Positions 5,497-49,143 of a stretch of 64,000 bases of DNA are shown in pieces. The first letter of the stretch is position 1. Each line of letters begins with the position of its first letter. A program made the translations under genes and the position numbers. This DNA comes from a virus. The notes under the pieces were generated by a model. That model did not search any database. It was not told the origin of the DNA and saw only the letters and a program-made list of their open reading frames with translations. The stretch lies in the IMG/VR virus record IMGVR_UViG_3300037245_003526, positions 24,297 through 88,296 of that record; one strand, given 5' to 3'.

Positions 5497-6351
5497 TTAA
5501 AAATAGTTATTAGAATTAAAACCACCATTTATACCCTTATACATCATTGCTACAGCTTCACTTGTGTGAATACTTTCTTCATGTACACATTTGACAATCC
5601 AGTCAGTTACTTTATCATTACTATTTAAACCTTGCGCTATTGCTCTAATAGCGTCCTCAACAAACATCGGATTTTTCCATGCATGTTTAGCAATTGTCAT
5701 TTCATCTTCTCTTTTGATAATAGGATATGGAAGAACCTTAACTGCTTTTTCTACTATATCAACAATATCCTCCAACCATAATGGACCTTTTAGATGATGA
5801 GGATGTCCCTCTACAAGAACATTAGCAAATGATCTTTGTGCATGAGGTGCAGCTCCACGACCTTTTCGAGCAAGGTACATTACTAACTCTTTACTACATG
5901 GACAATATGACGCATATTGAACTCTAACTCCTTGAAAGAATTTAAATTCATCTTCATCCAAAAGTTGTCCTTCAAACTTACAATCATAAAATAATGGAAA
6001 CTCATTATCAGATTTTATTGACTGTTTTATAATTGGTAACTTAAAGTCAAATCTCATATAAACATGATCAGTTTCTAAATTATCCCTAAGATCTTTTAAA
6101 ATATTAAGGATTAATGATTGCTTCAATGGTTCATCAAGATACCCACGTAAAGTTCGTATGCATCTTGACATTGAAATACCCTTTATGTTAGATTCTAAAC
6201 TTGCCCTCATAGAAACATTGGCAACCATATTTCTATAGTTGCCGTTTCTAGATTGTAACATAAACGGAACTTCAACATTTTCAACTCCAACCTGTTGAAT
6301 TGGAATTTTTACTTCAGGTTCGCTTTGTTGAATATCCGGTAAATCGCTCAT
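5497..6351 (-). CDS. Hypothetical protein.
   Basis: 284-aa ORF immediately downstream of RNAP beta. Confidence 0.4.
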   Translation of the reverse strand: MSDLPDIQQSEPEVKIPIQQVGVENVEVPFMLQSRNGNYRNMVANVSMRASLESNIKGISMSRCIRTLRGYLDEPLKQSLILNILKDLRDNLETDHVYMRFDFKLPIIKQSIKSDNEFPLFYDCKFEGQLLDEDEFKFFQGVRVQYASYCPCSKELVMYLARKGRGAAPHAQRSFANVLVEGHPHHLKGPLWLEDIVDIVEKAVKVLPYPIIKREDEMTIAKHAWKNPMFVEDAIRAIAQGLNSNDKVTDWIVKCVHEESIHTSEAVAMMYKGINGGFNSNNYF

Positions 6352-6492: not shown

Positions 6493-9400
6493 CTACCTTT
6501 CTACACCTATGGCTTTTAAATAAGCATTTAATAATCTTACAGACTCTGGAATTATAGATTGTTCTTTATCATCTTTCATAAAATCAGAATCTATCTTTGT
6601 CCTTATAAACTCATTTTTCAAATCAATACAATCACTCTTAGTAGTTAGAAACTCAAACAAATTTGCAGAAGCATCATGACCTGTTAAACACGCCATTTCC
6701 ATTTCTCCGCTTCTTTGACCTCCACCATGTTTTCTTCCTGCTAAAGGTTGTAATGTTTTTCTTGCATATGATCCTATTCCTCTAGCTGATAATCTTGTTT
6801 CAGAAATATGAACCATTTTGAAAAAGTACATATAACCTACAGCTATTCTATTCTTAATAATTTCTTTTGCTATAGGTTCGTACACTTCTCTTTTGAATTC
6901 AGTATTTGTATATTCAAGTGCTTTTCTGGTAACATCTAAGTCTACTGATTCAAATGGTGGTTGAATTAAAACAATACTATCAATAAACTTCTCAGTAATT
7001 TCTCCTGGAAGCTGTTGATTAAATTGTTCATAATACCATCCACCATCGGTTCTGTCAATAATTTTGATATAATTAAGTAAGTATAATTTTAACATTTTTT
7101 GTATTTGAGCATCATCTAATCCTTCAACTCTTTTAATTTTTCTATCAAGAATTAATTTCATATATTTTCTTAAATCAGAAAGTGACATAGCTAAATGTAA
7201 TTCATAAAGCTGTCCAATATTCATTCTGCTGATGATACCCAGAGGGTTTATACATATATCAACATGACGACCATCAGGTAATTGTGGCATTTTTTCATGA
7301 GGAACAATTGTTGAAATTACTCCCTTATTTCCATGTCTGTTTCCAACTTTATCACCAACCTGAATAGGTCTGAAAAATATTGCGAATAACTCTACGAAAA
7401 TTCCATTAATTTTTTCATTCTTAATTTTGAATTTTCCTATGTTTGCATGTGTGTCTAATTCATTATCTTTGATAAACTTTATTGCTTCTTTTTTAGGAAG
7501 GTGTTCTGATATTACCCTTCGTAAATCAGTCTCTTTCTCTTGCTGATCTGTAATTTTTTTCTCTACCCATTCTTTATATTCAGGAACATCTTCATTCCAT
7601 TCATTAGCAAATATATTACACTCTGTGATATACAAATTTTTTCTTGCATATAAATTCTTTTCCTGTTTGAAAATATCAAGAAACTCTTGCTGATTAGAAG
7701 GTATAGTTTTTATAATGGCATATGTATCATCCTTTTTAATTCTATCCTCTCTAGTAGGTAGTGGTTTAAAAACATTTTTATCCAAACTTAATAAGAGTTT
7801 ATGAGGTGGAATTGTAAATGACAAATCCATATAATGTACTGATGTAAGTACATTATCATCTCTTAGTCTTTCAGATATTACTATACCATCCTCATAGTTA
7901 TAACCGTACCACTCCATTACAGCAGTAAGTAAATTTTTTCCAATATTAATCTTATTGTCAGTACAATAATTACTCTCTGCTATTATCTGACCTTTACTTA
8001 CTTTGTCACCAAATTTGACATAAATTTTTAAGACATCAAGATTTGAAATATATATCTTTCTATAAGATATATTAAAAATATCTACTTCTTCATTATCATA
8101 AGCAAGAATTAGATATTTTTCATCTAAATAAACTACTTCACCATCCTCCTTTGCAACTTTAACAAACTGTGTTTTATCAGTATATAATCCTTCGCAACCA
8201 GATTGAATCATTGGTACATCAAAATTTTGTAACATGATTGCTTGTCTCATTTGTGATGATGCCATTTGAAGTCTGGTTTGATCATCGTGCTCTAAAAAAG
8301 GAACCATTGAAACTGGAATTGAAATTGGTTGCTTTTCAAGATATTCATTTGTAAAACGTAAATTTTCATCTAACGGAACATTTGGAATTAAGTTTTGTAA
8401 CACTCCACAATTTTCCCTATCAGGAGTATCCACCGGACAAATTCTACCAAACATTGTATCATTAATATCTCGTAAATGCTCAGGTACATTTTGTTTATTA
8501 AAACCTCCAGGACCAACTAAACTCGTTCTACTTAACTTTGTGAGTTCTTCTATTGGATTTATGGAAAAGTCAAATTGAATTATATCTGAAACATTACATT
8601 CTGAAAGAATTTGTGTAGAATTTACATTAAACTTTGGTTGTCTGGCAGTTCTATTAGTAATACAGAAATCGAAGATTATTTTACTTACCTTTGATAATAT
8701 CATATATTCAAAACAACGTATTCTCTTGTTCTGCATGTCTGTATCATCAAAACCTCCAGATTCCATTGTATAGATTAATTCATCAAGAACAGAATCAGTA
8801 TGAAAAAACCTTGAAGTCATAACATCACACTTCATAATAAGGTCTAATGCAAAAACTAAATCTTCACCCTTACCTTTGGCATTATATTTTGAATAATGTC
8901 TTCCTAACTCTTTAATAATATCATCTTGTGAAGTTCTCTTATTTTCATCATAAAAATCTAAAATATCTTTTAAGAAAGCACCATACATTCCATCATTACT
9001 AAAACTATCAGAATTCAAAGAAGATAGTTTAAATTTATTATTCATTTCCTCTACACCAAAATAAGCAAACATTACTAAATGTAAAGGAACCTTTCTTCCT
9101 AAAATACTAATATAAGTATATGGTGAATCTTTTCTATCTTCAAAAACCATTATTTGAGTAACGTTGGTTCTAAGTTTTATACTCTTTCCTCTTGTAACAA
9201 CTGGAATATCAAAAAACTGAAACTGAGGAATTTTTTTCCTGCCATTTATAATTATATAATTATTATCAATAAGTTTTGGAATTTGTATTGATAAATTTAT
9301 TAAAGACGTCCCTTTCTGAAGTCTAATTGATAATGTTTTTTTCAATGTTCTGCTTATATCACCTGTAGAAAATCTTGGTTCCTTAAATTCACATTCCACA

Positions 9401-9552
9401 ACTTCAAAACCAATATCAGCCACAGGTGCTATAATCACTTTAATATCTTCTAATAAAGAACTATATTCATTAGCTCTTATATCAAAAATATTCTTCTCTG
9501 CAAGTTTATAAACTGGATTAGCTATATTCAAAAGTACTCCTCCTTTCAACAA
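6493..9552 (-). CDS. Multisubunit RNA polymerase beta-subunit homolog (set 1).
   Basis: It carries GDKVGNRHGNKGVIS (the beta C-terminal catalytic-region signature) and MASSQMRQA (an NMQRQA-like motif). 1019 aa. Confidence 0.8.
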   Translation of the reverse strand: MLKGGVLLNIANPVYKLAEKNIFDIRANEYSSLLEDIKVIIAPVADIGFEVVECEFKEPRFSTGDISRTLKKTLSIRLQKGTSLINLSIQIPKLIDNNYIIINGRKKIPQFQFFDIPVVTRGKSIKLRTNVTQIMVFEDRKDSPYTYISILGRKVPLHLVMFAYFGVEEMNNKFKLSSLNSDSFSNDGMYGAFLKDILDFYDENKRTSQDDIIKELGRHYSKYNAKGKGEDLVFALDLIMKCDVMTSRFFHTDSVLDELIYTMESGGFDDTDMQNKRIRCFEYMILSKVSKIIFDFCITNRTARQPKFNVNSTQILSECNVSDIIQFDFSINPIEELTKLSRTSLVGPGGFNKQNVPEHLRDINDTMFGRICPVDTPDRENCGVLQNLIPNVPLDENLRFTNEYLEKQPISIPVSMVPFLEHDDQTRLQMASSQMRQAIMLQNFDVPMIQSGCEGLYTDKTQFVKVAKEDGEVVYLDEKYLILAYDNEEVDIFNISYRKIYISNLDVLKIYVKFGDKVSKGQIIAESNYCTDNKINIGKNLLTAVMEWYGYNYEDGIVISERLRDDNVLTSVHYMDLSFTIPPHKLLLSLDKNVFKPLPTREDRIKKDDTYAIIKTIPSNQQEFLDIFKQEKNLYARKNLYITECNIFANEWNEDVPEYKEWVEKKITDQQEKETDLRRVISEHLPKKEAIKFIKDNELDTHANIGKFKIKNEKINGIFVELFAIFFRPIQVGDKVGNRHGNKGVISTIVPHEKMPQLPDGRHVDICINPLGIISRMNIGQLYELHLAMSLSDLRKYMKLILDRKIKRVEGLDDAQIQKMLKLYLLNYIKIIDRTDGGWYYEQFNQQLPGEITEKFIDSIVLIQPPFESVDLDVTRKALEYTNTEFKREVYEPIAKEIIKNRIAVGYMYFFKMVHISETRLSARGIGSYARKTLQPLAGRKHGGGQRSGEMEMACLTGHDASANLFEFLTTKSDCIDLKNEFIRTKIDSDFMKDDKEQSIIPESVRLLNAYLKAIGVER

Positions 9553-9932
9553 TCATGACCCCTTGAGTGTATAAGAAAATTCATCTCACTGTATTCTCTT
9601 GCTATTTTTCTCCTAATATTTTGCTCTATATTTTTTCTAACGCGTTCATAAAAATACTTTTCAGCATCGTATCCAAAAATAATATCACCTTCTTTAGTAA
9701 CCATATGAATTTTAGCAATAAGAATTTTTACATTAATTTTTTGCATAAGTGTTTGTATCAACGTAGCTGAAATATCAGGAGATAGAGCAGCAGAAAAAGA
9801 TATTATTAAAACTTCTGGTTCTAAAGATAATACCGCAATCTCAGAAACTATAGATTGATATATACCATTTTCTATAATCTGTATTTTAGTAGAACAATGT
9901 TCCTTAATTATTTTTTTAATTTTTTCAATCAT
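9546..9932 (-). CDS. Small hypothetical protein between RNAP beta-prime and beta.
   Basis: The ORF-track start at 10112 overlaps beta-prime by 170 nt. An internal Met (MIEKIKK) preceded by AGGGGAGATTTT at about 9932 is a more plausible start. Confidence 0.35.
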   Translation of the reverse strand: MIEKIKKIIKEHCSTKIQIIENGIYQSIVSEIAVLSLEPEVLIISFSAALSPDISATLIQTLMQKINVKILIAKIHMVTKEGDIIFGYDAEKYFYERVRKNIEQNIRRKIAREYSEMNFLIHSRGHDC

Positions 9933-9942
9933 AAAATCTCCC

Positions 9943-12672
9943 CTAAACTCGCTCACCACATAATATTTTATCCATAATCCCTTTATAAAGTCCTGGTTGT
10001 AATATCCCTTTAATAATATGTTTTTTAGGATTTGAGAAAGCAAGACCCATAAGCCAGCTTTCATATGAGGGGACGGTTTGAACGGAATGAAACTGAGGAA
10101 CCAGTTTTTCACGATTTTTAAGAAGACGCCATTTATAAATTCCTACCCACATTAATTGAGAAACTATACACTCAAAGTGAACATGGTTAATAGTACGAGA
10201 AGTATTATAAGTTGTATAAAGATCATCAACTAATTTTGGTATGTCAACATTTTTACCAAACTTATGTAGTAATTTAGATGCCATTGATAAATCACTAACA
10301 ATATCCTGTTGTTTCAACTCATCTACTTCTTCACCTTCTCTTATATTTGCAACTCCACTAGTATGAAATGTTCTTAAAACTAATTGAGTATTACATTCAC
10401 CCATTGATTGAGCAGCAATAATTCCAACAAACTTTGTTTTAAGATCCTCATGTAATTTTCCATAACAAGTATGACATAATTTTTCATTTTTACAATATAT
10501 GGGACTTCTAACATTTATTGTTTTTCCAATAAAGTCCATATAATTATCTTTTGTAATAAGTACTAACTCATCATCTTCAGACATCCATTTATTTATAAGT
10601 TGTTTAGCTTTCTTATCATCACGTATAAATACTTTTAATAAATCCGTTGTACCACAATCTTCAATATCATAACTCAGTAATAAATTTGCTGCTGTAAAAA
10701 TCAATTTTCTTGATAAATAACCAGAAGCTCCAGTATTAAGAGCAACATCAAGAAGACCTTTTCTACTACCATAAGTGGAATTAAAGAAACCTTTTGGGGT
10801 CAAACCACTTATAAAACTATTTTTAATTGGTTCAGGAATTATTTGACCATTAAAATTTGATACAAAACCCCTTGATAAAACTATCTGTTTAGCTTGATCC
10901 CAACTACCTCTAGCTCCAGATTCAATCATATATGAGTATTTAAATCCACTTCTTAAAATATCCATAAGGTCTTTATTCTCAGTTGAGATTTTGAAAACTT
11001 GTTCTCTTATGGACCCAGACGAGTAAATATCATCTCTGACAGTATCAATACCTTCGATATGACAATCATCGAGAGATAGAGTTGGACCGAATAGGGTTGA
11101 GTATTTGAATCCTACGAACTTGATTTTGTCCAACACCTCTGCTGTAGTAGCTAAATTATACTTTCGATTAATATCATTTAATATTCTAATCAATCCTTTT
11201 GAATTAGTAGGTTCAATAATAAGTGGATAATCTTCTGGAAAACATTCATTGAATATTTTAATATCCTCTTGAATAGTTTCCCCTTTATATTCAACTTTTC
11301 TACTTAGTTTTGGAAATTTATTATTAGTAAGTGCATATATACCAAGAACCATATCCTGACTAGGTGTTGTAGTTAAACTGCCATTAGATGGGTTCTTTAA
11401 ATTCTGAGTAATTAACATTTTTTCAATTGCTTCTTGTTTAGTTTCTTCGCTAATAGGAACATATATGGCCATCTGATCTCCATCAAAATCAGCATTAAAT
11501 GGTGGGCAAGATAATGGATGAATTCTAATAACATTATCTAAAGATATTTTAATATAGTATGCTAACATACTAAGTTTATGGAGAGATGGTTGTCTGTTTA
11601 ATATACAAACTTCTCCACTACATATTTCTTCACATAAGGAAAATAAAACTGATGAGTTTGAAGCTATACACTCATCAATAAAATCAATAGATTGATTTAG
11701 CAATTTAAACTGTCCTGTATCTATTAGTTTCTTTGCTACTTCAATCTTAAAGATTTCTAAAAATATAATATAAGGAATTGAACATTGATCAATGTTTAAT
11801 GTTGGATCTGGTACTATGACTGCTCTACCAGAAAAATCTATTCTTTTACCAAGTATGTTTCCCCTGATAAGACCTTCTTTTTTAGAAAGTTTTTCAAGAA
11901 TATAAGCATATAATTCATTTACATCTTTTTGAAGTTGTCTGAAATGATTATAGAATAAGGTATTATCTCTTCTGACATCAATCAGCGATTCTTCAATAAC
12001 TTCTTTCTTTGTAAGAACCTGCATGTAATACTTATTAATCTTATCTGCATATTGTTCACTTCTTAAGGATCCTTTAGTAGCAGGTCTTAAATCAGCAGGT
12101 AATACAATAATACGATCTATTATTAATTCATCAATATTATCATATACAATCTGCCATGGTGAATCTTCCTCCTCGTCAATTGCTTTCTCTGCTAACTTAA
12201 ATACAAGCTCATGTATAGCTTCTAACCCATACCATGCTTCTCGTCCTTCTTCAATTTCATCTGAATTAGTAACTATTAGATCATTATTATCCTCATGTTC
12301 ATCATCCAAAACAAGGACAGATTTTTCATCTCTCATTAGCTTTTTTAAAGCTTCTTTTAATGAGGTACCAGCAAGATCAACTACCAAATCATAAAATACT
12401 GGATTGACCACAGGCACCGGAAGAACTATTTTTGCAAACCTTCTTCTTCGTTCATCACTATTAACAACATCAACACTACATATATTACATGTACCTCCAG
12501 AACCAGATGTTCCATAATATGTACCGCATTGACATGTGTAGTTTTTTAGTGGACCAAATATTTGTTCGCTAAATAGTCCTTCCGGATGAAATTTTTTCTT
12601 ATCCATTACCTTAGTTGTAGTTATTTCAGGAAGGTTTTCTGTAAATTCTGTAAACTTTAGTAGACTCGGCAT
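9943..12672 (-). CDS. Multisubunit RNA polymerase beta-prime-subunit homolog (set 1).
   Basis: It has an N-terminal zinc finger (CQCGTYYG...CNICS), the catalytic NADFDGD, and a trigger-loop region IIAAQSMGECNTQLVLRTFHTSG. 909 aa, ending soon after the trigger loop. Confidence 0.85.
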   Translation of the reverse strand: MPSLLKFTEFTENLPEITTTKVMDKKKFHPEGLFSEQIFGPLKNYTCQCGTYYGTSGSGGTCNICSVDVVNSDERRRRFAKIVLPVPVVNPVFYDLVVDLAGTSLKEALKKLMRDEKSVLVLDDEHEDNNDLIVTNSDEIEEGREAWYGLEAIHELVFKLAEKAIDEEEDSPWQIVYDNIDELIIDRIIVLPADLRPATKGSLRSEQYADKINKYYMQVLTKKEVIEESLIDVRRDNTLFYNHFRQLQKDVNELYAYILEKLSKKEGLIRGNILGKRIDFSGRAVIVPDPTLNIDQCSIPYIIFLEIFKIEVAKKLIDTGQFKLLNQSIDFIDECIASNSSVLFSLCEEICSGEVCILNRQPSLHKLSMLAYYIKISLDNVIRIHPLSCPPFNADFDGDQMAIYVPISEETKQEAIEKMLITQNLKNPSNGSLTTTPSQDMVLGIYALTNNKFPKLSRKVEYKGETIQEDIKIFNECFPEDYPLIIEPTNSKGLIRILNDINRKYNLATTAEVLDKIKFVGFKYSTLFGPTLSLDDCHIEGIDTVRDDIYSSGSIREQVFKISTENKDLMDILRSGFKYSYMIESGARGSWDQAKQIVLSRGFVSNFNGQIIPEPIKNSFISGLTPKGFFNSTYGSRKGLLDVALNTGASGYLSRKLIFTAANLLLSYDIEDCGTTDLLKVFIRDDKKAKQLINKWMSEDDELVLITKDNYMDFIGKTINVRSPIYCKNEKLCHTCYGKLHEDLKTKFVGIIAAQSMGECNTQLVLRTFHTSGVANIREGEEVDELKQQDIVSDLSMASKLLHKFGKNVDIPKLVDDLYTTYNTSRTINHVHFECIVSQLMWVGIYKWRLLKNREKLVPQFHSVQTVPSYESWLMGLAFSNPKKHIIKGILQPGLYKGIMDKILCGERV

Positions 12673-12984
12673 CTATCCCCCTTTATTAAAATTCTTATTC
12701 ATAAACTTTGAAAGTCCTCCGATTAAAAGAAGTAAATGTTTCTTAACCTCTTTAGAAACTACTTCAGGAAGATTTACCAATAGCTCTTCAACAATTTGCT
12801 TAATTTCACTTTTCTCTAGTTCAACTTTTTGTGCTTTGACCTCCTTTTTTATTTGTTCCATCATATTTGGTCTTTTGACAAATACATTCCCTAATTCCCC
12901 TTCTAGTTTTTCTTCTACAATTTCTTTTAAAAGATTTTTTATCAAATCTTTTGTTTCCTCACTTTCCATGTTATCTCCCTTCAT
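12673..12984 (-). CDS. Small K/E-rich helical protein that ends in Gly-Gly.
   Basis: 103 aa with C-terminus ...NFNKGG. It lies immediately downstream of the E1/E2-like cluster. Confidence 0.4.
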   Translation of the reverse strand: MKGDNMESEETKDLIKNLLKEIVEEKLEGELGNVFVKRPNMMEQIKKEVKAQKVELEKSEIKQIVEELLVNLPEVVSKEVKKHLLLLIGGLSKFMNKNFNKGG

Positions 12985-13442
12985 TAAAAATAATTAATTG
13001 GAAGTCTTCCTGCTTCTCCTTCATATCTGATATATTTTTCATCAAAATCCGGCCAAAAATGTGGCGAGTTTAAATTCCAAATCCTTAACATAAACCTTAT
13101 TGCCCATAATTGCTGTTTTAATAATTTCTCTTTCCCACTAATTACCATTCCTTTTAAATCATCTGAAATACAAAAATCCGCCTTTTTACAAAAATATTTA
13201 AAGCTTCCGCTAACTACTTTTCCTTTTGGAATATATGAGTTTGGATGTGCAACATCATATAATGTTATTCCTTCAAATTCATTATCAAATTTATTATTCA
13301 CAAGAATATCATATTTACTTATAATATAATTTTGATGAACCCACTTAATATCATATGTATTTTTTTTCCCTGTATGAAAATCATCAAATCTAATAAGTGC
13401 AGGTTTAATTGTTTCTCTCATTGTTTGTAATATTTCACTCAT
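12984..13442 (-). CDS. Hypothetical protein. It is a weak E2/UBC-like candidate.
   Basis: The ATG at 13440-13442 overlaps the TAA of the upstream E1-like gene as TAATG, a classic coupled-translation arrangement. The track's longer start at 13478 is probably wrong. It has a mid-protein HPN motif followed by a Cys (AHPNSYIPKGKVVSGSFKYFC) at roughly the position seen in UBC folds. Confidence 0.3.
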   Translation of the reverse strand: MSEILQTMRETIKPALIRFDDFHTGKKNTYDIKWVHQNYIISKYDILVNNKFDNEFEGITLYDVAHPNSYIPKGKVVSGSFKYFCKKADFCISDDLKGMVISGKEKLLKQQLWAIRFMLRIWNLNSPHFWPDFDEKYIRYEGEAGRLPINYF

Positions 13443-14329
13443 TATGCACCTCCTGTCTCTGGAATTAATTCTATACATATTCTTTCTTCATTTATTCCTA
13501 TTGTGACTAAATATTCTCTATAAGTAAATACATTATTAGCCATTTCTGATAGAATTCTCATAACATCTTCTGGTGATTGTAATTCATGCTTAGAAATAAT
13601 ATATGAACATAAAGAATCTTCTTTTCTACCAACATAAATAGGTATAGAAGAATCTTTATTTGCTTTTAATATCGCAGGTAAATTTTCAAAATGTCCTGTT
13701 AATTTTTCTTGCCCCTCAAAAGAAATATCATAAATTAAATCCGGTTGATTTTTATATTTTTTAACAGCTATCTGAAATTTATCATCATCATCATCACCCT
13801 TCAAATCTATACTATATTTAATTTCTCTTTCAATAAGTTCCTTAATTTTTCCTGTTCTAACATGTTCATATAACTTAAATGCTGCTCTTCTTATTTCATC
13901 CTTTGAAAAATCACTAGTATAAGTACCCCGTTTTGAAGTACCATATGTTACATATTTATTACAATCAATAACTAACTTATTGAATGAAATATAAAATCTA
14001 ATATCAATATAACCACTCCTATCACAGCTTTCATCTCTACAATCAAAAACCATATCATATGGAATTCTTTTACATGTAGGTTCATCAAATTTTTTATATA
14101 TAGGGTTTACCAATAAATCATCAGTCCTATCTTTTATCATATCACAAAGCGCATATACTTTTTTACGTTTTAAATCTCTAACTCTATAAATAGAGTTTTC
14201 TAAATTTGATTTTTCTACAAAATCATTATCAATAAATGAAAGTTTTTGTAATCCCGGTAAATGAGACATAAACTCAGCGAAGAATCCACCTAACGAACCA
14301 ACACCTATTATTAATACACTTTTAGTCAT
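13442..14329 (-). CDS. ThiF/MoeB/E1-like adenylation-domain protein (E1-like A). Its nucleotide-binding motif is degenerate.
   Basis: VLIIGVGSLGG (GxGxxG), then IDNDFVEKSNLENS where canonical E1s have SNLNRQ, then DMVFDCRDESCDR (DxxDN-like). A GGGAGTG ribosome-binding site precedes it. Confidence 0.6.
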   Translation of the reverse strand: MTKSVLIIGVGSLGGFFAEFMSHLPGLQKLSFIDNDFVEKSNLENSIYRVRDLKRKKVYALCDMIKDRTDDLLVNPIYKKFDEPTCKRIPYDMVFDCRDESCDRSGYIDIRFYISFNKLVIDCNKYVTYGTSKRGTYTSDFSKDEIRRAAFKLYEHVRTGKIKELIEREIKYSIDLKGDDDDDKFQIAVKKYKNQPDLIYDISFEGQEKLTGHFENLPAILKANKDSSIPIYVGRKEDSLCSYIISKHELQSPEDVMRILSEMANNVFTYREYLVTIGINEERICIELIPETGGA

Positions 14330-14411
14330 TCACAATTCACTCCCTTCATATTTTATGATCCCCACTTATAAATAAGCAGGGATCATAAATACTTTTAAAT
14401 TTTAGCAACTA

Positions 14412-14915
14412 TTAACCAACTCTAAATTCATCTATTTCGCGATCGGTTGGGTTTGGTCGATAATAAGATTTCCAAATAAACTGTTTTAAAGCTATTTCCA
14501 TTGGATGTAAATATGGTAAATCATATTGTACATATTTTTTAGAACCATTTGTAATAACCTTAAAATCAATATTCTTGAATTCTCTTAATTTATCTACAAA
14601 ATCACGTTCTTCCTTAATAGTCTTTACTTTTTTTCTTCTTAAATCAAAATAATCATATTCAGTATAATCCTTAATTTTTTTGATTTCCAGGCTTGTGCAT
14701 CGTTTACCTAAAGCATTTCTCGCTCTTTTATATGCTCTTTTTCTTCCTTCTTTCTTATTGAACTGATCATATATAGAGCATATAGAAATACCTCGTGCAA
14801 CTAATAGATTAGATTCTTTTTCTAAAAATAAACACACCGTAACCGAGTTACCAACACATGGAGACTTTTCGTAGTAATAAACATCACGAATATCTGTCAT
14901 GGCTTTGTCAATCAT
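14412..14915 (-). CDS. Hypothetical basic protein inside the Ubl-like operon.
   Basis: 167 aa with a strong GGAAGGAGA ribosome-binding site. No clear motif. It contains Cys and a basic patch. Confidence 0.4.
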   Translation of the reverse strand: MIDKAMTDIRDVYYYEKSPCVGNSVTVCLFLEKESNLLVARGISICSIYDQFNKKEGRKRAYKRARNALGKRCTSLEIKKIKDYTEYDYFDLRRKKVKTIKEERDFVDKLREFKNIDFKVITNGSKKYVQYDLPYLHPMEIALKQFIWKSYYRPNPTDREIDEFRVG

Positions 14916-14977
14916 TTTCTCCTTCCTTTCAGTTGGGGTGAACTGTTATAGTCCACCCCATTTTATAAGTTTAATTT

Positions 14978-15466
14978 CTACAGTCCTACATCAATACCCT
15001 TACGTCCAGATGGTTTCATGAATTCAACATTGTCAGCGTCCTTTAAAATATAAGACGAAGCAACTTCTTTTCCATTAACCAACATCTTTGGAGTAGAAGG
15101 AACATTAAGAACTTCACGAAGAAACTCAGCAACAGCACCAACTTTTTTACCAACAACAGGATATTCACCACTTGAAGCTCCGCAAGAAACCTGTATAGTG
15201 CTTGAGATTCTTCCACTAGAAGAACCTGGTTTCGTCATTACACTCCTTACATTACACTCAACAGCAGTAACTTCACCTGAATTATCAACTTCTCTTGACA
15301 TACTTGCCGTATCGCGTTTTCTTGACTTCTTGGCAGATAACGCTTCAATAATTACTTCTTTCCTCTTTTTAGACATTCCAGGAACATTATGTTTTTTACA
15401 TAAATCTCTCAGATGAGAAACTGTATGTTTTTCCAATGCTTCCACTGTCCATTTAGCTTTACCCAT
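14978..15466 (-). CDS. SAP/Rho-N-like N-terminal domain plus a C-terminal ThiS/MoaD-like beta-grasp. This is the candidate ubiquitin-like protein.
   Basis: The N-terminus TVEALEKHTVSHLRDLCKKHNVPGMSKKRKEVIIEAL fits a SAP bihelical pattern. The C-terminus AVAEFLREVL...KMLVNGKEV...ILKDADNVEFMKPSGRKGIDVGL parallels ThiS/MoaD (TVxELL...VNxxxV...LKDGDEVxxxPPVSGG), but it ends SGRKGIDVGL rather than GG. Confidence 0.45.
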   Translation of the reverse strand: MGKAKWTVEALEKHTVSHLRDLCKKHNVPGMSKKRKEVIIEALSAKKSRKRDTASMSREVDNSGEVTAVECNVRSVMTKPGSSSGRISSTIQVSCGASSGEYPVVGKKVGAVAEFLREVLNVPSTPKMLVNGKEVASSYILKDADNVEFMKPSGRKGIDVGL

Positions 15467-15495
15467 TTTTCTTTTTCCTTTCTTTAAATGTTTTA

Positions 15496-16176
15496 TTAAA
15501 TTACTACTCGTTGTGCGGGTCTTACATTCATCATTTCCATATCAAAGTAAACTTCTGAATTCTTACCCGACCGTACATTACCTACTCCAACTAAGTCATA
15601 AAAATACCAGCACATTATAAGAGCCACAGTTATATTAGCAAATAACACTTGTGGCTCAGATACTGATAGTTCTTCACAACTCATTTGATCCGGAGATCTA
15701 TCTTCCGGGTTGTCTATCTCGGGATGATAGTCAGTAAGAGATGGTGTTATTTTTTTACCATTCTCTCGTATATAAATTTGCACATTTCCGTCAACAAATT
15801 CATTTCCTCCTGAGATTAAAACAACTTTTTCTAATGTAGTACAATAATCAGAAACAATTTTTCTAGTCCTATGATTATCTACACATAAAAATATGACATC
15901 ATCCTCTTCTATAATTCTATTGACATTCCTTGAGGTAACATAGTCTGTACATGTTAAAACTTCTAAATTATCAAATATTGCAATAAGATCTCTTCTCTTA
16001 ATTCTTGCCTTATTACCAAAGTTTGAAAAGGATTGTCTTTCTTTATTCCTTTCCTTGTAACTCTTTCCATCGATCAAAGTAATATTAAATTCACCATCAA
16101 TATAATTAACAAATCTGAAAAGGTTATCGCATAATGCAGAACCAACTCCTCCTAAACCTATAACTTTGATGTTCAT
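15496..16176 (-). CDS. ThiF/MoeB/E1-like adenylating enzyme (E1-like B).
   Basis: VIGLGGVGS (GxGxxG), then LIDGKSYKERNKERQ (a D..E.N..RQ ATP-binding motif), then DDVIFLCVDNHRTRK (DxxDN..R), then VVLISGGNE. Confidence 0.7.
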   Translation of the reverse strand: MNIKVIGLGGVGSALCDNLFRFVNYIDGEFNITLIDGKSYKERNKERQSFSNFGNKARIKRRDLIAIFDNLEVLTCTDYVTSRNVNRIIEEDDVIFLCVDNHRTRKIVSDYCTTLEKVVLISGGNEFVDGNVQIYIRENGKKITPSLTDYHPEIDNPEDRSPDQMSCEELSVSEPQVLFANITVALIMCWYFYDLVGVGNVRSGKNSEVYFDMEMMNVRPAQRVVI

Positions 16177-16191
16177 ATTTACTCCTTTCTA

Positions 16192-17214
16192 CTAAAATAT
16201 ACTAGATTCATCAGGTTCATCAGGTTCTTCTTTAAAACCTAATTTCTCTAATTGGTCTTCATCAAGTTCCTCAAAAATTTCCTGCATAAGAAGCTCTGTT
16301 TTATGCGCTTTATAAGGACACTGTTCACATGGATTCCATTCCTCATTTTTAATTCTGTAACCAGAATCATTTACACTTTCAGGTTTCAGTCTGAATGGAT
16401 TAAAATCATGTACTTTAAGTTTAGTTTCCTCAGGCAAGACTTTTTTAGCTTCTTCTTCATACTTGATTTTATCAACCATCTTTAACCATTTTTTTGGAAA
16501 TTTAATATTTCCGTCTATCACCCCCTTTACTTTATACCCAAGAGATGTCTTAGATGGTCTAACATCCTCTACTTGTTCATATTTTCCCTCCATAAGCGAC
16601 CATTTTTTATAAACTTCTCCAGGAATTTCAAACTCTTCAAGTTTGATTCCATCAATATAATTAGTTGGATCGCAAGTAAATCTTGTTCCATTTGCAACAA
16701 TAGAACAAGAGATTGATATTAAATCATTATTCATATTACCAACTGTAATATGAAGTCCATCAAAATCAACTTCATCTGTATCATCTGTTCCAGAATGAAA
16801 TGCTGACATTCCTGCGTGACTATGTATAGTACCTATCCTTTGATATCCTTTAATCTGTTCATTAAGATAAGCTACAGATCCACTACTAGTTTTCTGTAGA
16901 GGAACCTGAACTTTAAATTTACCAGATTTTTTATTAAAATGTATTACAGTGTTTGCCTCATTACTATTATAATCCTGATATACTTTCTTGAAAAAAGTAA
17001 TAATCTTTCCAAAATCTTCAGCTGAAATTCGTTTGATATTCATTTTTGCTTGAGGTATTATATCATCAGAAAGAAATGAAATCTTATTAATAGGTACTAT
17101 ACTTTCCATGAAACCTACTTTTTTCTTTAAGTAAACTTTATCCTTACAAATAATATATAAAACATCATCTGAAGGCATCTCATTTACACCATCATTTATA
17201 TGTACTTTAAACAT
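16192..17214 (-). CDS. JAB/JAMM (MPN+) family metalloprotease with a C-terminal extension.
   Basis: IHSHAGMSAFHSGTDD matches HxHx7Sx2D, with an upstream Glu. 340 aa, GGGAGGTG ribosome-binding site. Confidence 0.7.
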   Translation of the reverse strand: MFKVHINDGVNEMPSDDVLYIICKDKVYLKKKVGFMESIVPINKISFLSDDIIPQAKMNIKRISAEDFGKIITFFKKVYQDYNSNEANTVIHFNKKSGKFKVQVPLQKTSSGSVAYLNEQIKGYQRIGTIHSHAGMSAFHSGTDDTDEVDFDGLHITVGNMNNDLISISCSIVANGTRFTCDPTNYIDGIKLEEFEIPGEVYKKWSLMEGKYEQVEDVRPSKTSLGYKVKGVIDGNIKFPKKWLKMVDKIKYEEEAKKVLPEETKLKVHDFNPFRLKPESVNDSGYRIKNEEWNPCEQCPYKAHKTELLMQEIFEELDEDQLEKLGFKEEPDEPDESSIF

Positions 17215-45054: not shown

Positions 45055-48000
45055 TTATCTCCAAATCATTAAACTTATAAAGTATGAATTTAATAAATCT
45101 CTTACCGGTGCATGTTTAGGAGGTCTATACTTAGCACCACCTGTTTGAATAATATCAGATAATATTTCATTCTTTGTTACATGATCATCAGATAAAGGAC
45201 CAAAAAATTCTTCTAGTAAAGAAGGACAATTATAAGAAATAAATGAATACGTATCTAATTCACCCATTCTTTGACCACCGTCTTTTCTTTTGCCGGCAGT
45301 AGGTTGAAATGTCTTGGATGTAATAGGTCCAGTACTTCTAACATGAAGTTTTTCAGATCCTATATGTTCAAGTTTAAGCATATACAAATATCCAACTGCT
45401 ACTGGATATTTTGTTGTTGTATTATACTCTGGAAGTCTTAATTTATATCCAGGTTTTAATTTAAGTGCTTTTAAAGTAGCTAAAATTTCTTTATAAGATG
45501 GAGCTTTAAAAGGAGGAATTAATAATGTCATACTCCCGCTAGCTTTTACTTGACTAATAAATTTAGTAAACATAGCAGCAGACATACCTCTAAATTTAGA
45601 TATAAGACCCTTACTAAATTCTTTATTTTTAGTAGTATCAAGTTTAGGTAAGACTTGATTCAATAATGCCACTACTTTTGGTTTATTATTTAATTTTATT
45701 ATTTGTCTTCCTAACTCATGCGAAATTAAACCTGTATATGTTTCATAAAACTGACCAACATTCATTCTTCCTATAATACCTACAGGATTTAAAATAATAT
45801 CTATTCGATCTCCAGTTGGGGAAATAGGCATATTTTCATCTTTTTCAATTAATGAAATAATACCCTTTGCTCCATGTCTATTAGTTAACTTATCACCAAC
45901 CATAACTGGTAGCTCTTGTTCTACTTTAAATCTTATAACAACACCTTTTACATTTTCACCCCTATTAGTAAATTTTTCTTTAGGTTTTAGTTTATATCTT
46001 TTTCTGGTTCTATCAACAAGTGGTTTCAATTCTGGAAATATACTTTCTCTTAAATTAGAAAACACTTCAATATCAACAATTTTCCCACCTGGTGATTTTT
46101 TAATATAGTGTCCTGCTATGATATCAACACCTTCTTCTTCCTCGTCATAACCTATTAATTGCTCGATTTCACCCACTGTTTTTCGTATTAACACTTCACC
46201 TTTTTCAGTTTCAGCACCTAACTCAACCATTTTTATAATTCTATCACCTTTATCAATTTGTACTTCTTCAACTATTCCATGAAGTGATGTAAGGAGTTCT
46301 TTCTTAACAACTGATTCTGAAATAACAATACCATCCTCAAAATTATGACCCTTATAAGGCATAAATGCTACACATAAAGTTCTACCTAAAGCTATAGATC
46401 CAGAAGTAATACATGAACCCTCAGCAATAATTTGTTTATTTTTAACAACCTGACCAACTTTAACTACCGGTTTGAAAACACTTAAAGTATTTTTTCCAGC
46501 TCCTGATCTAAGATGAACTGGTACTATATCAATCTTATTAGTCTTCCCACCTGTGCAAGTAACACTAATAAAATCCTCAGTAATATTTTTTATTTTTCCA
46601 TTACATGGTGATCTTTTAATAAATGCATCAGATAAGACACTAGTTAATATTGATTCATATCCTGTTTGAATAGATGGTGTTTCTGGATTCTTTAGTGGTA
46701 CAGACTGTCTTTGCTGATTACATCCAAACATAACTCTGTTACCATCATTATTTTCTACAAAAGGAATTTGAGCTGCAGTAGTTGAAAGTAAACCAGAATC
46801 TTCTCCTTCCTTAATACCTTTTGGAGTTATTAAACCTCTTGCTGATGTAATATATGCATCAACAGTAAGCTGCTGAACTATTCCTACATTTTCACCTTCT
46901 GGTGTATCTAATGTATCAATATTTCCATACATAGATGTATGGACATTTCTTCCTTCCATTTGAATTGCCGTCTTATCAGGTATTCCTCCAATTGATTTAC
47001 CTACTGGAGATATTCTTGTTTTGGTAGCCATTTCTTCAACTGGATTTGCATATTCCATATCAACAACAATTTCTGAATTTATAAATTCGCTTAATACTTT
47101 TGTTGGAGATAATTCAAAAGTTGCTTTCTTGTTTCCGGATAATACTTGCTCTTTATATTCTGTATATGAAGCTAATATTTGTTTTTGTGCTAGATGTACT
47201 AAAATCTCAGAGTTTCTTATTCTTTGATTTGAGACATCATTTCTTTTTTGTGTAAATCCTTCAACTGCTTTAGACGCCATGTATTTCATTATTAAATCAA
47301 GATTACTTGGTAATTGTTGATTTATAAGAACTTGTTTAGCAACCGGATCAACAATATTTTCTAAGTTTGATTGGATTAAAAATGTAGAATTTATTCTTCC
47401 GCTCATTTTTATTATAAGATCATTAAAATATTCTTTTGTACCAAATTCTTTATCTATTTTAAATGAAGAAATATTAGCATGTATAAAAGATTGACATAAT
47501 TCTTCTTGAAGTTTAGTTTCAGCTCCATTGAAAACTATATATTTATTCGGTTCAATCAAAGATCTAAATTTTTCCTCTTTTGGACGTTCCTCTTCAAACT
47601 TATGGGTTAGATTATATAATTTTAATGTTTCTTTAAAACCAAAACTAAAAGCAAGTAGTATCATTAATGGAAGTTTATAAGAACCAATATAAGCTTCTAA
47701 GTATTCTTCTCTTATAGTTCTCTTACTCCATATATGAAATGTAGAATAACTACTTTCAAATTTTGAGTCAAATTGTTTAGGAAATGAAATAGGATTAAGA
47801 ACTATTTGATTAATTAAACATTTCTTTCTACCATTAACAAGAAATGTTCCATCTTCTGATATCTTAGGTACATCTATTCGAACTACATGTTTTTTATTAT
47901 ACATACCTGTTAATGTTACTTCGACAGTATTTATATCTGATCTACTTAGTTCACCCATATTAGTTGGTTTTTCAATTATTTTAATACTCTTATAAGTTAG

Positions 48001-49143
48001 TGGAACCTCTTTAGTTTTTAGAACCTTAAATGAGTTTGCCATATCCTTTTTAAGATTAGTTTCAAAATCAATTTTTCTCTTCTCAAATAAATGTTCAGGA
48101 GACTTATTATCAACCATTTTTGGAGCATTAGATAATTGTATTACTACATCTCCTGAAGTTGTTTCAGTCTTTTGAGGTTTTAGTAGTTCATCAGCATATT
48201 GTCTATCAACTACTTTTAATGAAAGTAATTTCTTAGCTTTAGGAATAGATTTAGCAGTTCTAGATGCCTTTTCAATATCACCTGAAGTCCTGTATAATAT
48301 TGAAGCAGTTGCAATTTCTCTAGCATCATTGTCATCAACTAAATCATAAGTAACCTTATCCATTTCTTTTTTATTTTTTGTAAAAAAGTCATAGATAGCA
48401 GCAAAAATTTTAGACCTATTAGAAGGACTAACGTCTCCATCAATTCTTCTCATTATAGAGGATGTAGCAAGACTAATTTTCTTATGTTCTTCTTCTTCTG
48501 TATCTATAAGTTTTATATTCTTTAAAAATTGTTTAACCCTTGTAAATTTGAAGTCTTTGTCTTTTATAAGCAGTCTATAATTAGATGAAGATTCATTTAT
48601 AATATTCATAATCAAATGATCATAATTAATTTCTTCCTTCTTTAAATCAAGTAATAAAGGAAATATCTTTCTATCAATTAGACTCTTTGTTTCTTTAGTA
48701 GCATCAACTGAATATAAAAGAACTTTCTGATAATTTGGAGGGAAACTACTTAGAACTTTTAAAAGCATATTTTTAATTAAGAAACCTGCTCTTTGTCTAT
48801 AATTAGTAACCTTGTATGATATGTCTATTGTATTTAAAAAACCGGAAAGGTCATATACTAAATTTTGTCCCTTTGGTACTTTCTGGTTAGAACTTAAAGC
48901 AAGTAAACTATGACTTTTATATAAATTCTTTATATCAGGAGTTAAATAAGAAATTGGAATCTTTGTACGCGGAACTATTACATACCTAACATCTATTCGT
49001 TTCAAATTCAACTTTTCGTAATCATCTATAAAAGATGAATTTTCACTAAAATAGATTAATAAAAAAGGTTCTTTTCTATTTTGAGGAAAACGAATTCCAT
49101 CTACTAGATGTGTATATTGTCTTATTGATTTGAATTGAATCAT
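45055..49143 (-). CDS. Multisubunit RNA polymerase beta-subunit homolog (set 2).
   Basis: GDKLTNRHGAKGIIS, and CNQQRQS-like and other beta-region motifs. 1362 aa. Confidence 0.85.
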   Translation of the reverse strand: MIQFKSIRQYTHLVDGIRFPQNRKEPFLLIYFSENSSFIDDYEKLNLKRIDVRYVIVPRTKIPISYLTPDIKNLYKSHSLLALSSNQKVPKGQNLVYDLSGFLNTIDISYKVTNYRQRAGFLIKNMLLKVLSSFPPNYQKVLLYSVDATKETKSLIDRKIFPLLLDLKKEEINYDHLIMNIINESSSNYRLLIKDKDFKFTRVKQFLKNIKLIDTEEEEHKKISLATSSIMRRIDGDVSPSNRSKIFAAIYDFFTKNKKEMDKVTYDLVDDNDAREIATASILYRTSGDIEKASRTAKSIPKAKKLLSLKVVDRQYADELLKPQKTETTSGDVVIQLSNAPKMVDNKSPEHLFEKRKIDFETNLKKDMANSFKVLKTKEVPLTYKSIKIIEKPTNMGELSRSDINTVEVTLTGMYNKKHVVRIDVPKISEDGTFLVNGRKKCLINQIVLNPISFPKQFDSKFESSYSTFHIWSKRTIREEYLEAYIGSYKLPLMILLAFSFGFKETLKLYNLTHKFEEERPKEEKFRSLIEPNKYIVFNGAETKLQEELCQSFIHANISSFKIDKEFGTKEYFNDLIIKMSGRINSTFLIQSNLENIVDPVAKQVLINQQLPSNLDLIMKYMASKAVEGFTQKRNDVSNQRIRNSEILVHLAQKQILASYTEYKEQVLSGNKKATFELSPTKVLSEFINSEIVVDMEYANPVEEMATKTRISPVGKSIGGIPDKTAIQMEGRNVHTSMYGNIDTLDTPEGENVGIVQQLTVDAYITSARGLITPKGIKEGEDSGLLSTTAAQIPFVENNDGNRVMFGCNQQRQSVPLKNPETPSIQTGYESILTSVLSDAFIKRSPCNGKIKNITEDFISVTCTGGKTNKIDIVPVHLRSGAGKNTLSVFKPVVKVGQVVKNKQIIAEGSCITSGSIALGRTLCVAFMPYKGHNFEDGIVISESVVKKELLTSLHGIVEEVQIDKGDRIIKMVELGAETEKGEVLIRKTVGEIEQLIGYDEEEEGVDIIAGHYIKKSPGGKIVDIEVFSNLRESIFPELKPLVDRTRKRYKLKPKEKFTNRGENVKGVVIRFKVEQELPVMVGDKLTNRHGAKGIISLIEKDENMPISPTGDRIDIILNPVGIIGRMNVGQFYETYTGLISHELGRQIIKLNNKPKVVALLNQVLPKLDTTKNKEFSKGLISKFRGMSAAMFTKFISQVKASGSMTLLIPPFKAPSYKEILATLKALKLKPGYKLRLPEYNTTTKYPVAVGYLYMLKLEHIGSEKLHVRSTGPITSKTFQPTAGKRKDGGQRMGELDTYSFISYNCPSLLEEFFGPLSDDHVTKNEILSDIIQTGGAKYRPPKHAPVRDLLNSYFISLMIWR

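Follow-up and report, generated by a model that had tools for sequence, protein, structure and literature searches.

The phage lineage represented by the DNA analysed here probably runs its own ubiquitin-style protein tagging, since one of its genes encodes a predicted fusion of a SAP domain and a ubiquitin-like (Ubl) domain and lies amid genes for predicted activating, carrier and trimming enzymes. The fusion protein, called SAP-Ubl in the following, is probably the modifier of a phage-encoded ubiquitination-like conjugation cascade; this reading draws on the predicted architecture of the protein, an invariant glycine followed by variable C-terminal caps, invariant catalytic residues in the neighbouring enzymes and a conserved gene order. 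What appears to be new is that phages of one lineage bring along a probable prokaryotic-type system of Ubl conjugation whose modifier bears a putative nucleic-acid-binding domain. The window, that is, the whole stretch analysed, comprises 64,000 nucleotides (positions 24,297 to 88,296 of IMG/VR record IMGVR_UViG_3300037245_003526), and the following genes of the module are found in it:

12984–13442, minus strand: small E2-like protein of UBC-like type (152 aa when read from the ATG at 13442), whose start shares one base with the stop codon of the second ThiF gene
13442–14329, minus strand: second ThiF-like protein, 295 aa (Pfam ThiF, E=2.8e-12), with a Rossmann adenylation-type N-terminus and the RQ motif lost
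14412–14915, minus strand: 167-aa protein, optional module member between SAP-Ubl and the second ThiF, with a homologue in 30 of 85 loci
14978–15466, minus strand: SAP-Ubl gene, the central feature, 162 aa (ORF, 259 homologues and 291 clusters at 50% identity with E<=1e-10)
15496–16176, minus strand: ThiF-family E1, 226 aa (Pfam ThiF, E=1.6e-17; NCBIfam PRTRC_ThiF, E=2.2e-10), predicted active, candidate catalytic Cys167
16192–17214, minus strand: JAB/JAMM metalloprotease, 340 aa (Pfam Prok-JAB, E=3e-4; NCBIfam PRTRC_A, E=1.9e-9)
17207–19792, minus strand: 861-aa protein, made of an N-terminal Prok-E2_D/PRTRC_B-type domain (residues ~60–260, nt ~19013–19615) and a ~600-aa extension

The SAP-Ubl gene and its module

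The SAP-Ubl ORF is a real, conserved gene. Clustered public proteins (90% clustering) contain 259 homologues, 150–220 aa long and located on contigs of up to 302 kb, and an exhaustive HMM search of 1.84 billion representatives returned the 291 clusters at E<=1e-10; tblastn against 50,697 deposited phage genomes gave zero matches. In the translated ORF the protein C-terminus reads ...EFMKPSGRKGIDVGL, and ...NVEFMKPSGRKGIDVGL is the end of the 162-residue product of the minus-strand ORF 14978–15466.

Gene order was compared across at least 85 related loci, five of them metagenomic and 80 from IMG/VR. It runs from a protein of ~121 aa through the ~861-aa protein, the JAB protease, the ThiF of ~226 aa, SAP-Ubl, (the 167-aa protein), the ThiF of ~295 aa, the small protein with an HPN...Cys signature and (a protein of ~70–100 aa) to the beta' and then the beta subunit of an RNA polymerase, and is nearly invariant across the 85 loci, with neighbouring genes abutting or overlapping. 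The small HPN...Cys protein gene is present in 81 of the 85. The 167-aa gene is an optional insertion in this otherwise fixed module, and profile searches with its product returned no significant family match. Scans of 12500–20400 with promoter and terminator consensus sequences gave nothing above shuffled controls.

Domain anatomy of SAP-Ubl

The protein can be divided into four segments:

15320–15448, minus strand: SAP/Rho_N-like helix-extended-helix domain, residues ~7–49
15260–15319, minus strand: variable linker, predicted disordered, residues ~50–69 (pLDDT <50 at 49–61; its length differs across the family alignment)
14996–15259, minus strand: ThiS/MoaD-like beta-grasp (Ubl) domain, residues ~70–157, ending at the invariant Lys156-Gly157
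14981–14995, minus strand: C-terminal cap IDVGL, residues 158–162, predicted to be removed (pLDDT <50 at 159–162; the tails of 221 relatives are absent, single or unconserved)

At the N-terminus, residues 11–45 match Rho_N (E=0.0015) and the protein also matches SAP (E=0.16), both below the curated cut-offs, and an AF2 model built from a 36-sequence alignment (mean pLDDT 72.8) places three helices there (8–12, 16–25 and 36–49), ahead of a disordered linker at 49–61. Fold and sequence pattern are thus both those of a SAP/Rho_N helix-extended-helix domain, as the earlier note on this DNA had proposed for the N-terminal region, and the assignment has strong support; DNA or RNA binding by this domain we infer from its predicted fold only.

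Support for a beta-grasp in the C-terminal half is moderate. The domain scores above no curated Pfam or NCBIfam family threshold: residues 124–152 match ThiS at E=0.084 (13.9 bits vs a cut-off of 22.5) and NCBIfam moaD_arch is matched at E=0.0083 (16.6 bits vs 49.5). When the members of the family were scanned singly, the sub-threshold matches were to TGS (24 of 27), ThiS (19 of 27) and Ub-Mut7C (12 of 27), all of them beta-grasp families. A MoaD-like VNG...gD.vef..P motif lies near the C-terminus, and the C-terminus of E. coli MoaD aligns with the last 24 columns of the family alignment (hhalign, P=0.0016). Searched against PDB sequences, the beta-grasp profile matched no beta-grasp protein; its best match, the FHA domain of Dun1 (E=0.036), was judged spurious, resting on a shared 'NG..v...Y.Lk.GD' string. 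Structure prediction, which the earlier note had suggested as a check, gave the beta-beta-alpha-beta-beta arrangement of the fold, with strands at 71–77 and 85–94, a helix at 109–120 and strands at 127–130 and 146–156. That note had assigned the ThiS/MoaD likeness to the C-terminal 60 residues; the fold holds, but its extent is better given as residues ~70–157, with a core at ~86–157 that is delimited by stand-alone Ubl relatives of 68–73 aa corresponding to these window residues. Taken together, sequence matches and model lead us to accept the predicted SAP plus beta-grasp architecture.

A conserved glycine and a putative removable cap

Four positions near the C-terminus (Pro152, Gly154, Lys156 and Gly157) never vary in the family alignment; the residues beyond them are not conserved. 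The family ending is G-x-K-G, that is, Lys-Gly, and the absence of a Gly-Gly end remarked on before is thus a property of the whole family; in the window protein (...KPSGRKG-IDVGL) the ending is non-canonical only over the last five residues. Among the 221 relatives with a recognized terminal motif, the protein stops at the conserved Gly in 120 and continues for one extra residue in 78, while the other 23 carry an unrelated, unconserved tail of 2–75 residues. The closest relatives of the window protein end in RKG, RKGI, RKGLK or RKGIGAGI. The single extra residue is Cys in 70 of the 78 cases, a bias beyond simple capping that may have a role in recognition by the JAMM protease or in terminal chemistry.

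Polyubiquitin genes consist of head-to-tail repeats capped by an extra residue. Seven relatives of SAP-Ubl are likewise head-to-tail poly-Ubl genes of 2–4 units, with every unit ending in G-x-K-G and the last one capped by C, MLIE or VVRIG; those in proteins P0215, P0262, P0271, P0286 and P0295 and in locus L096 (2690–3523) resemble polyubiquitin genes. A conserved C-terminal Gly followed by a variable tail of removable type is also what characterizes Bil-like Ubls: in Type II Bil the conserved Gly of the Ubl is followed by up to nine unconserved residues, and cleavage by the JAB peptidase BilC right after this Gly was shown experimentally (PMC10557695). The ending pattern of SAP-Ubl is, as judged from these comparisons, that of ubiquitin-type precursors. 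Because the Gly is conserved, the tails are absent, single or unconserved and poly-Ubl genes occur, Gly157 is likely the mature C-terminus (...Arg-Lys-Gly157) and IDVGL a removable cap. Of the two possibilities that the earlier note had raised for this end, trimming by the JAB protease to expose a Gly hence gains strong comparative support from the invariant Gly157, the 120/78/23 split and the seven poly-Ubl genes, whereas conjugation through an atypical end, the terminal Leu, is unlikely given the same pattern.

Predicted activating and trimming enzymes

The JAB protease had been singled out earlier as a neighbour of the Ubl gene; it carries the full E...HSHx7SxxD JAMM motif, with E86, H131, H133, S141 and D144 invariant in 63 of 63 sequences, but the context is wider, a full set of E1, E2-like and JAB genes. 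Directly upstream of SAP-Ubl lies an E1 with both the adenylation residues and a Cys: the GxGGxG loop, D36, R47-Q48, K56, D100-N101 and C167 are invariant in all 52 sequences compared, and C167 is presumably the catalytic residue. The closest phage ThiF genes to this E1 are those of Bacillus jumbo phages, at ~27% identity, and the annotations around the one match examined revealed no obviously similar module.

The second ThiF-like protein, of 295 aa, gives profile matches to MoeB, ThiF and Cap2 over its first ~110 residues and retains the nucleotide-binding Gly loop and D96-C97 without the RQ motif. By analogy with BilD, which combines an inactive with an active adenylation domain, and with NAE1-UBA3, this protein could, speculatively, be the inactive half of an E1 heterodimer. 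Its C-terminus is almost always ...ELIPETG[A/G]A (in the window copy ...ELIPETGGA, codons near 13445–13460), and in the E-T-G-[A/G]-A end the G is kept in 58 and the final A in 59 of 61 relatives. Conservation of this degree at the very end of the protein suggests insertion into an active site, where the tail would be a second conjugatable one or a pseudo-substrate, or else membership of a ubiquitin-fold domain. A comparison of the C-terminal region with the SAP-Ubl profile (hhalign) found no similarity, so that a second copy of SAP-Ubl on this protein is unsupported; a different beta-grasp or ubiquitin-fold domain is possible.

Two E2-like proteins

In the small UBC-like protein, His66-Pro67-Asn68 and Cys91 are invariant in 47 of 47 sequences, and when its profile was searched against the PDB, E2 enzymes were the only natural sequences matched, aligned at the active site. 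The second candidate carrier is the 861-aa protein, in whose family 21 of 27 members match Pfam Prok-E2_D over the N-terminal ~250 residues (best E=3.6e-6), with N181, C189 and G191 invariant (C189 in 27/27). Alignment of the two families (hhalign) places Cys189 opposite Cys91 and is not significant (P=0.21), and the 861-aa profile matched nothing among PDB sequences. Short homologues of the 861-aa protein, encountered in other lineages, match Prok-E2_D (24.9 bits vs a cut-off of 25) and PRTRC_B (E=4e-4). Searches of Pfam and of PDB sequences detected no homologue of the ~600-residue extension, which might serve to recognize substrates or might itself be the target. Residues ~300–861 contain many invariant positions, F596, D600, R663, G675, D702, S713-N714 and W719 among them, along with repeated 'GD(K)V'-type motifs.

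The proposed cascade and its alternatives

In the proposed cascade, the JAMM protease (16192–17214) would cut off the cap IDVGL and expose Gly157, which the 226-aa E1 (15496–16176) would adenylate before forming a thioester on Cys167, possibly in a heterodimer whose other member is the degenerate ThiF-like protein of 295 aa. The Ubl would then be handed to an E2-like Cys, that is, Cys91 of the small HPN...Cys protein and/or Cys189 in the Prok-E2_D-type domain of the 861-aa protein, and be ligated to lysines of target proteins, a ligation that the JAMM protease may also reverse. As the SAP/Rho_N-like domain is N-terminal to the beta-grasp, it would be retained on the conjugate and modification would add nucleic-acid affinity; targets would gain a nucleic-acid-binding module and could be tethered to DNA or RNA. 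Counted against this reading are the Lys-Gly end in place of Gly-Gly, the window copy of the 861-aa protein, which has no Prok-E2_D match at E<=1, and the 295-aa protein with its conserved ...ETGAA end, for which the cascade offers no explanation. The pairing of a ThiS/MoaD-type protein with an E1 and a JAMM peptidase, furthermore, is found in sulfur-transfer pathways too.

The main mechanistic rival is a sulfur carrier of the ThiS/MoaD/TtuB/Urm1 kind, a role that is weakened by the evidence and that we consider improbable: the E1 would adenylate Gly157, which would then be thiocarboxylated, the SAP domain would deliver sulfur to DNA or RNA for a thio-modification specific to the phage, and the role of the JAMM protease would be limited to unmasking the C-terminus, as in the QbsD/QbsE and Mec+/CysO systems. 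The closest sequence signals of SAP-Ubl are of the ThiS/MoaD type and the E1 is a small MoeB/ThiF-like protein, but the terminus is K-G and not G-G; the frequent single Cys after the Gly recalls the CysO-cysteine adduct known from the CysO sulfur-carrier system, whereas the poly-Ubl precursors of the relatives are typical of conjugated modifiers. In terms of gene content, a radical SAM gene and the GTP cyclohydrolase gene folE2 in the same conserved region place nucleic-acid modification chemistry nearby, but rhodanese, cysteine desulfurase and PP-loop thiolase were not found among the conserved module genes, and two E2-like proteins with an invariant Cys are fixed in the module while sulfur-carrier pathways operate without an E2 (PMC10557695). 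The module thus departs from the composition of such a pathway, which has sulfur donor or acceptor enzymes and no E2.

It is also improbable that the module mainly counters host defence, by stripping host Ubl marks of the Bil or CBASS Cap2/Cap3 type, for instance, or by supplying a decoy Ubl that titrates host enzymes, and forms no conjugates of its own. The E1, E2 and JAB parts have homologues in the Bil and CBASS systems of hosts, and the PADLOC E1-E2 (Cap2) models match both ThiF-like proteins (E down to 1.9e-10), but PADLOC matched neither the Ubl nor the JAB nor any E2-like protein, the 861-aa one included, and the sole match of its BilA–D models was BilD to the E1 (E=0.037). The system looks complete, with activation and transfer residues all invariant, which a decoy or a simple deconjugase does not need, and in every related locus it is a fixed core module beside transcription genes rather than a variable accessory island. 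Less probable still is a non-covalent DNA/RNA-binding factor whose beta-grasp only docks partners while E1 and JAB act elsewhere, for instance on the ...ETG[A/G]A end of the 295-aa protein: this extreme C-terminus is strikingly conserved and numerous beta-grasp domains serve for interaction only (Iyer et al. 2006, PMC1779556), but the invariant terminal Gly, the variable tails and the poly-Ubl relatives are hard to explain without processing and use of the carboxylate, and reduced systems in other lineages retain the Ubl and lack the 295-aa protein. The anti-defence and the non-covalent role, possible in themselves, are harder than the conjugation cascade to reconcile with an unvarying Gly and a full set of unvarying catalytic residues.

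Relation to known Ubl systems

On the best reading, the proposed phage cascade is distantly related to both the PRTRC and the Bil systems. With Type II BilABCD it shares the co-encoded Ubl, E1 and JAB/JAMM protease, next to which it has candidate UBC-like E2 proteins, as well as the conserved Gly and short unconserved tail, removed by the JAB in Bil (PMC10557695) and predicted to be so here. Bil, however, is an antiphage system of hosts, and the window module belongs to the core genes of a jumbo-phage lineage; Bil has a single-polypeptide E1 with an inactive and an active adenylation domain and a CYS insertion, whereas the phage module has two small separate ThiF-like proteins and, unlike Bil, two E2-like proteins. 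Bil and Bub Ubls bear varied N-terminal domains, and a survey of bacterial Ubls lists N/G-rich tails, coiled coils and DUF1508 at this position and no SAP domain (PMC11601603). The chemistry of Bub systems involves oxyesters (PMC11601596).

The PRTRC cassette (TIGR03734–03742), catalogued as a mobile-element system (PMC3318190), resembles the module in its JAB, whose only match in NCBIfam is PRTRC_A (37.3 bits vs a cut-off of 101.8), and in its E1, which matches PRTRC_ThiF over the full length (40.3 bits vs 144.75); both scores are far below the cut-offs, and the window proteins have no PRTRC_B or PRTRC_C match. Further likenesses to PRTRC/Prok-E2_D systems are the match of the 861-aa family to Prok-E2_D, that of its short relatives to PRTRC_B and the association with mobile DNA. 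Unlike in PRTRC, the Ubl of the module matches neither PRTRC_C nor Prok_Ub, and no ParB-like protein was found among the module genes scanned, a putative nucleic-acid-binding domain being instead fused to the Ubl; the module also exceeds the PRTRC set by two proteins, the second ThiF-like one and the small HPN-Cys one, and by the 600 aa that extend its E2_D-like protein.

The ThiS/MoaD carriers with their MoeB/ThiF E1s, some of which JAMM peptidases unmask, likewise combine a small beta-grasp protein with a small adenylating partner and a JAMM neighbour (PMC1779556); SAP-Ubl differs from them by its K-G end, the E2-like proteins, the N-terminal SAP domain, the absence of sulfur-transfer enzymes and its sub-threshold scores. 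Tail assembly protein I (TAPI) of lambda and T1 is, with TAPK, a phage example of a ThiS/MoaD-like Ubl with a conserved C-terminal Gly and an adjoining JAB peptidase (PMC1779556), but these proteins lie in a tail-assembly cluster without E1 or E2, while SAP-Ubl is accompanied, next to transcription genes, by what is predicted to be a full set of activating and transfer enzymes; tail protein I and SAP-Ubl showed no similarity in sequence, there being no match to a PHROG tail family.

In eukaryotes, SDE2 has a Ubl and a SAP domain in one protein, with the Ubl at the N-terminus and cleaved off, so that the SAP domain is not carried with a conjugated Ubl. The combination of SAP and Ubl recalls SDE2, and the capped repeats of the two- to four-unit poly-Ubl relatives recall polyubiquitin, with no homology implied.

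A reduced core of the module occurs in species-representative genomes and consists of a stand-alone 70-aa Ubl, a ~225–260-aa (or longer) homologue of the N-terminal part of the 861-aa protein, a JAB and an E1 like the 226-aa one. This four-gene version is present in contigs of CPR metagenome-assembled genomes (MAGs; loci L089–L091) and of Chloroflexota MAGs (L092–L095); one CPR copy, on a Falkowbacteria contig, lies beside the housekeeping genes for DNA polymerase I and phosphoglycerate mutase, and one Chloroflexota copy, on a 533-kb contig, beside TraG-like, coupling-protein and relaxase genes. The four-repeat poly-Ubl gene of locus L096 belongs to the same four-gene core, with Prok-E2_D-like, JAB and E1 genes. 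Given these reduced cores, the phage module can be seen as an enlarged form of a more widespread Ubl, Prok-E2_D, JAB and E1 system, which mostly resides on mobile DNA. It goes beyond the core by fusing SAP to the Ubl, by the long extension that its E2_D-like protein bears and by two further proteins, the second ThiF-like and the small UBC-like one.

Novelty and implications

A literature search for phage-encoded Ubl/E1/E2 systems yielded only lambda TAPI/TAPK (PMC1779556), ThiF homologues of Asgard viruses and the host Bil, Bub and CBASS systems; no description was found in it of a full Ubl cascade in a prokaryotic virus or of a nucleic-acid-binding conjugatable Ubl, and a comparative review of jumbo phages does not mention the module. 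Prokaryotic Ubl conjugation has so far been a matter of host defence (Bil, CBASS) or has had no established role (Bub, PRTRC). If the cascade is real, phages too employ protein tagging, much as ubiquitin is exploited by viruses of eukaryotes, and the SAP-bearing modifier suggests a new use of the tag, in which targets would be recruited to DNA or RNA rather than marked for degradation. In its fullest form, which we put forward tentatively and with less confidence than the cascade itself, the proposal is that a large uncultivated jumbo-phage lineage has a complete, self-contained ubiquitination-like system: an E1 split into an active 226-aa and a degenerate 295-aa protein, comparable to the eukaryotic heterodimeric E1s, two E2-like proteins, a JAMM protease and a DNA/RNA-binding modifier through which proteins of the phage or the host would become tethered to nucleic acid, perhaps in connection with the adjacent phage RNA polymerase. 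The SAP-Ubl family would also open a way to the function of the PRTRC/Prok-E2_D systems, so far uncharacterised, that mobile elements carry, and the parts are compact enough to be used in vitro (a 70-aa Ubl, a 226-aa E1 and a ~110-aa E2-like protein).

Genomic surroundings

The module is directly followed by the RNA polymerase beta'/beta genes (6493–12672), and a further polymerase pair lies elsewhere in the window:

45055–49143 and 50177–52522, minus strand: second RNA polymerase beta/beta'-like pair, 1362 and 781 aa, with matches to jumbo-phage RNA polymerase PHROGs

The second pair implies that the phage has two multisubunit polymerase sets, of which only that at 6493–12672 adjoins the Ubl module. 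The window also codes for topoisomerase II, a UvsX-like recombinase, SbcC and folE2; these genes, the jumbo-type RNA polymerase pair and the 244.5-kb contig point to an uncultivated jumbo phage as the source. Synteny among the related loci extends past the module on both sides, in a region that may also harbour a pathway of nucleic-acid modification: upstream (19785–21978, minus strand) to the ~121-aa protein, a WYL_2 protein (20346–20669) and the radical SAM protein (20947–21978), and downstream, past the polymerase genes, to the folE2 GTP cyclohydrolase (5497–6351, minus strand).
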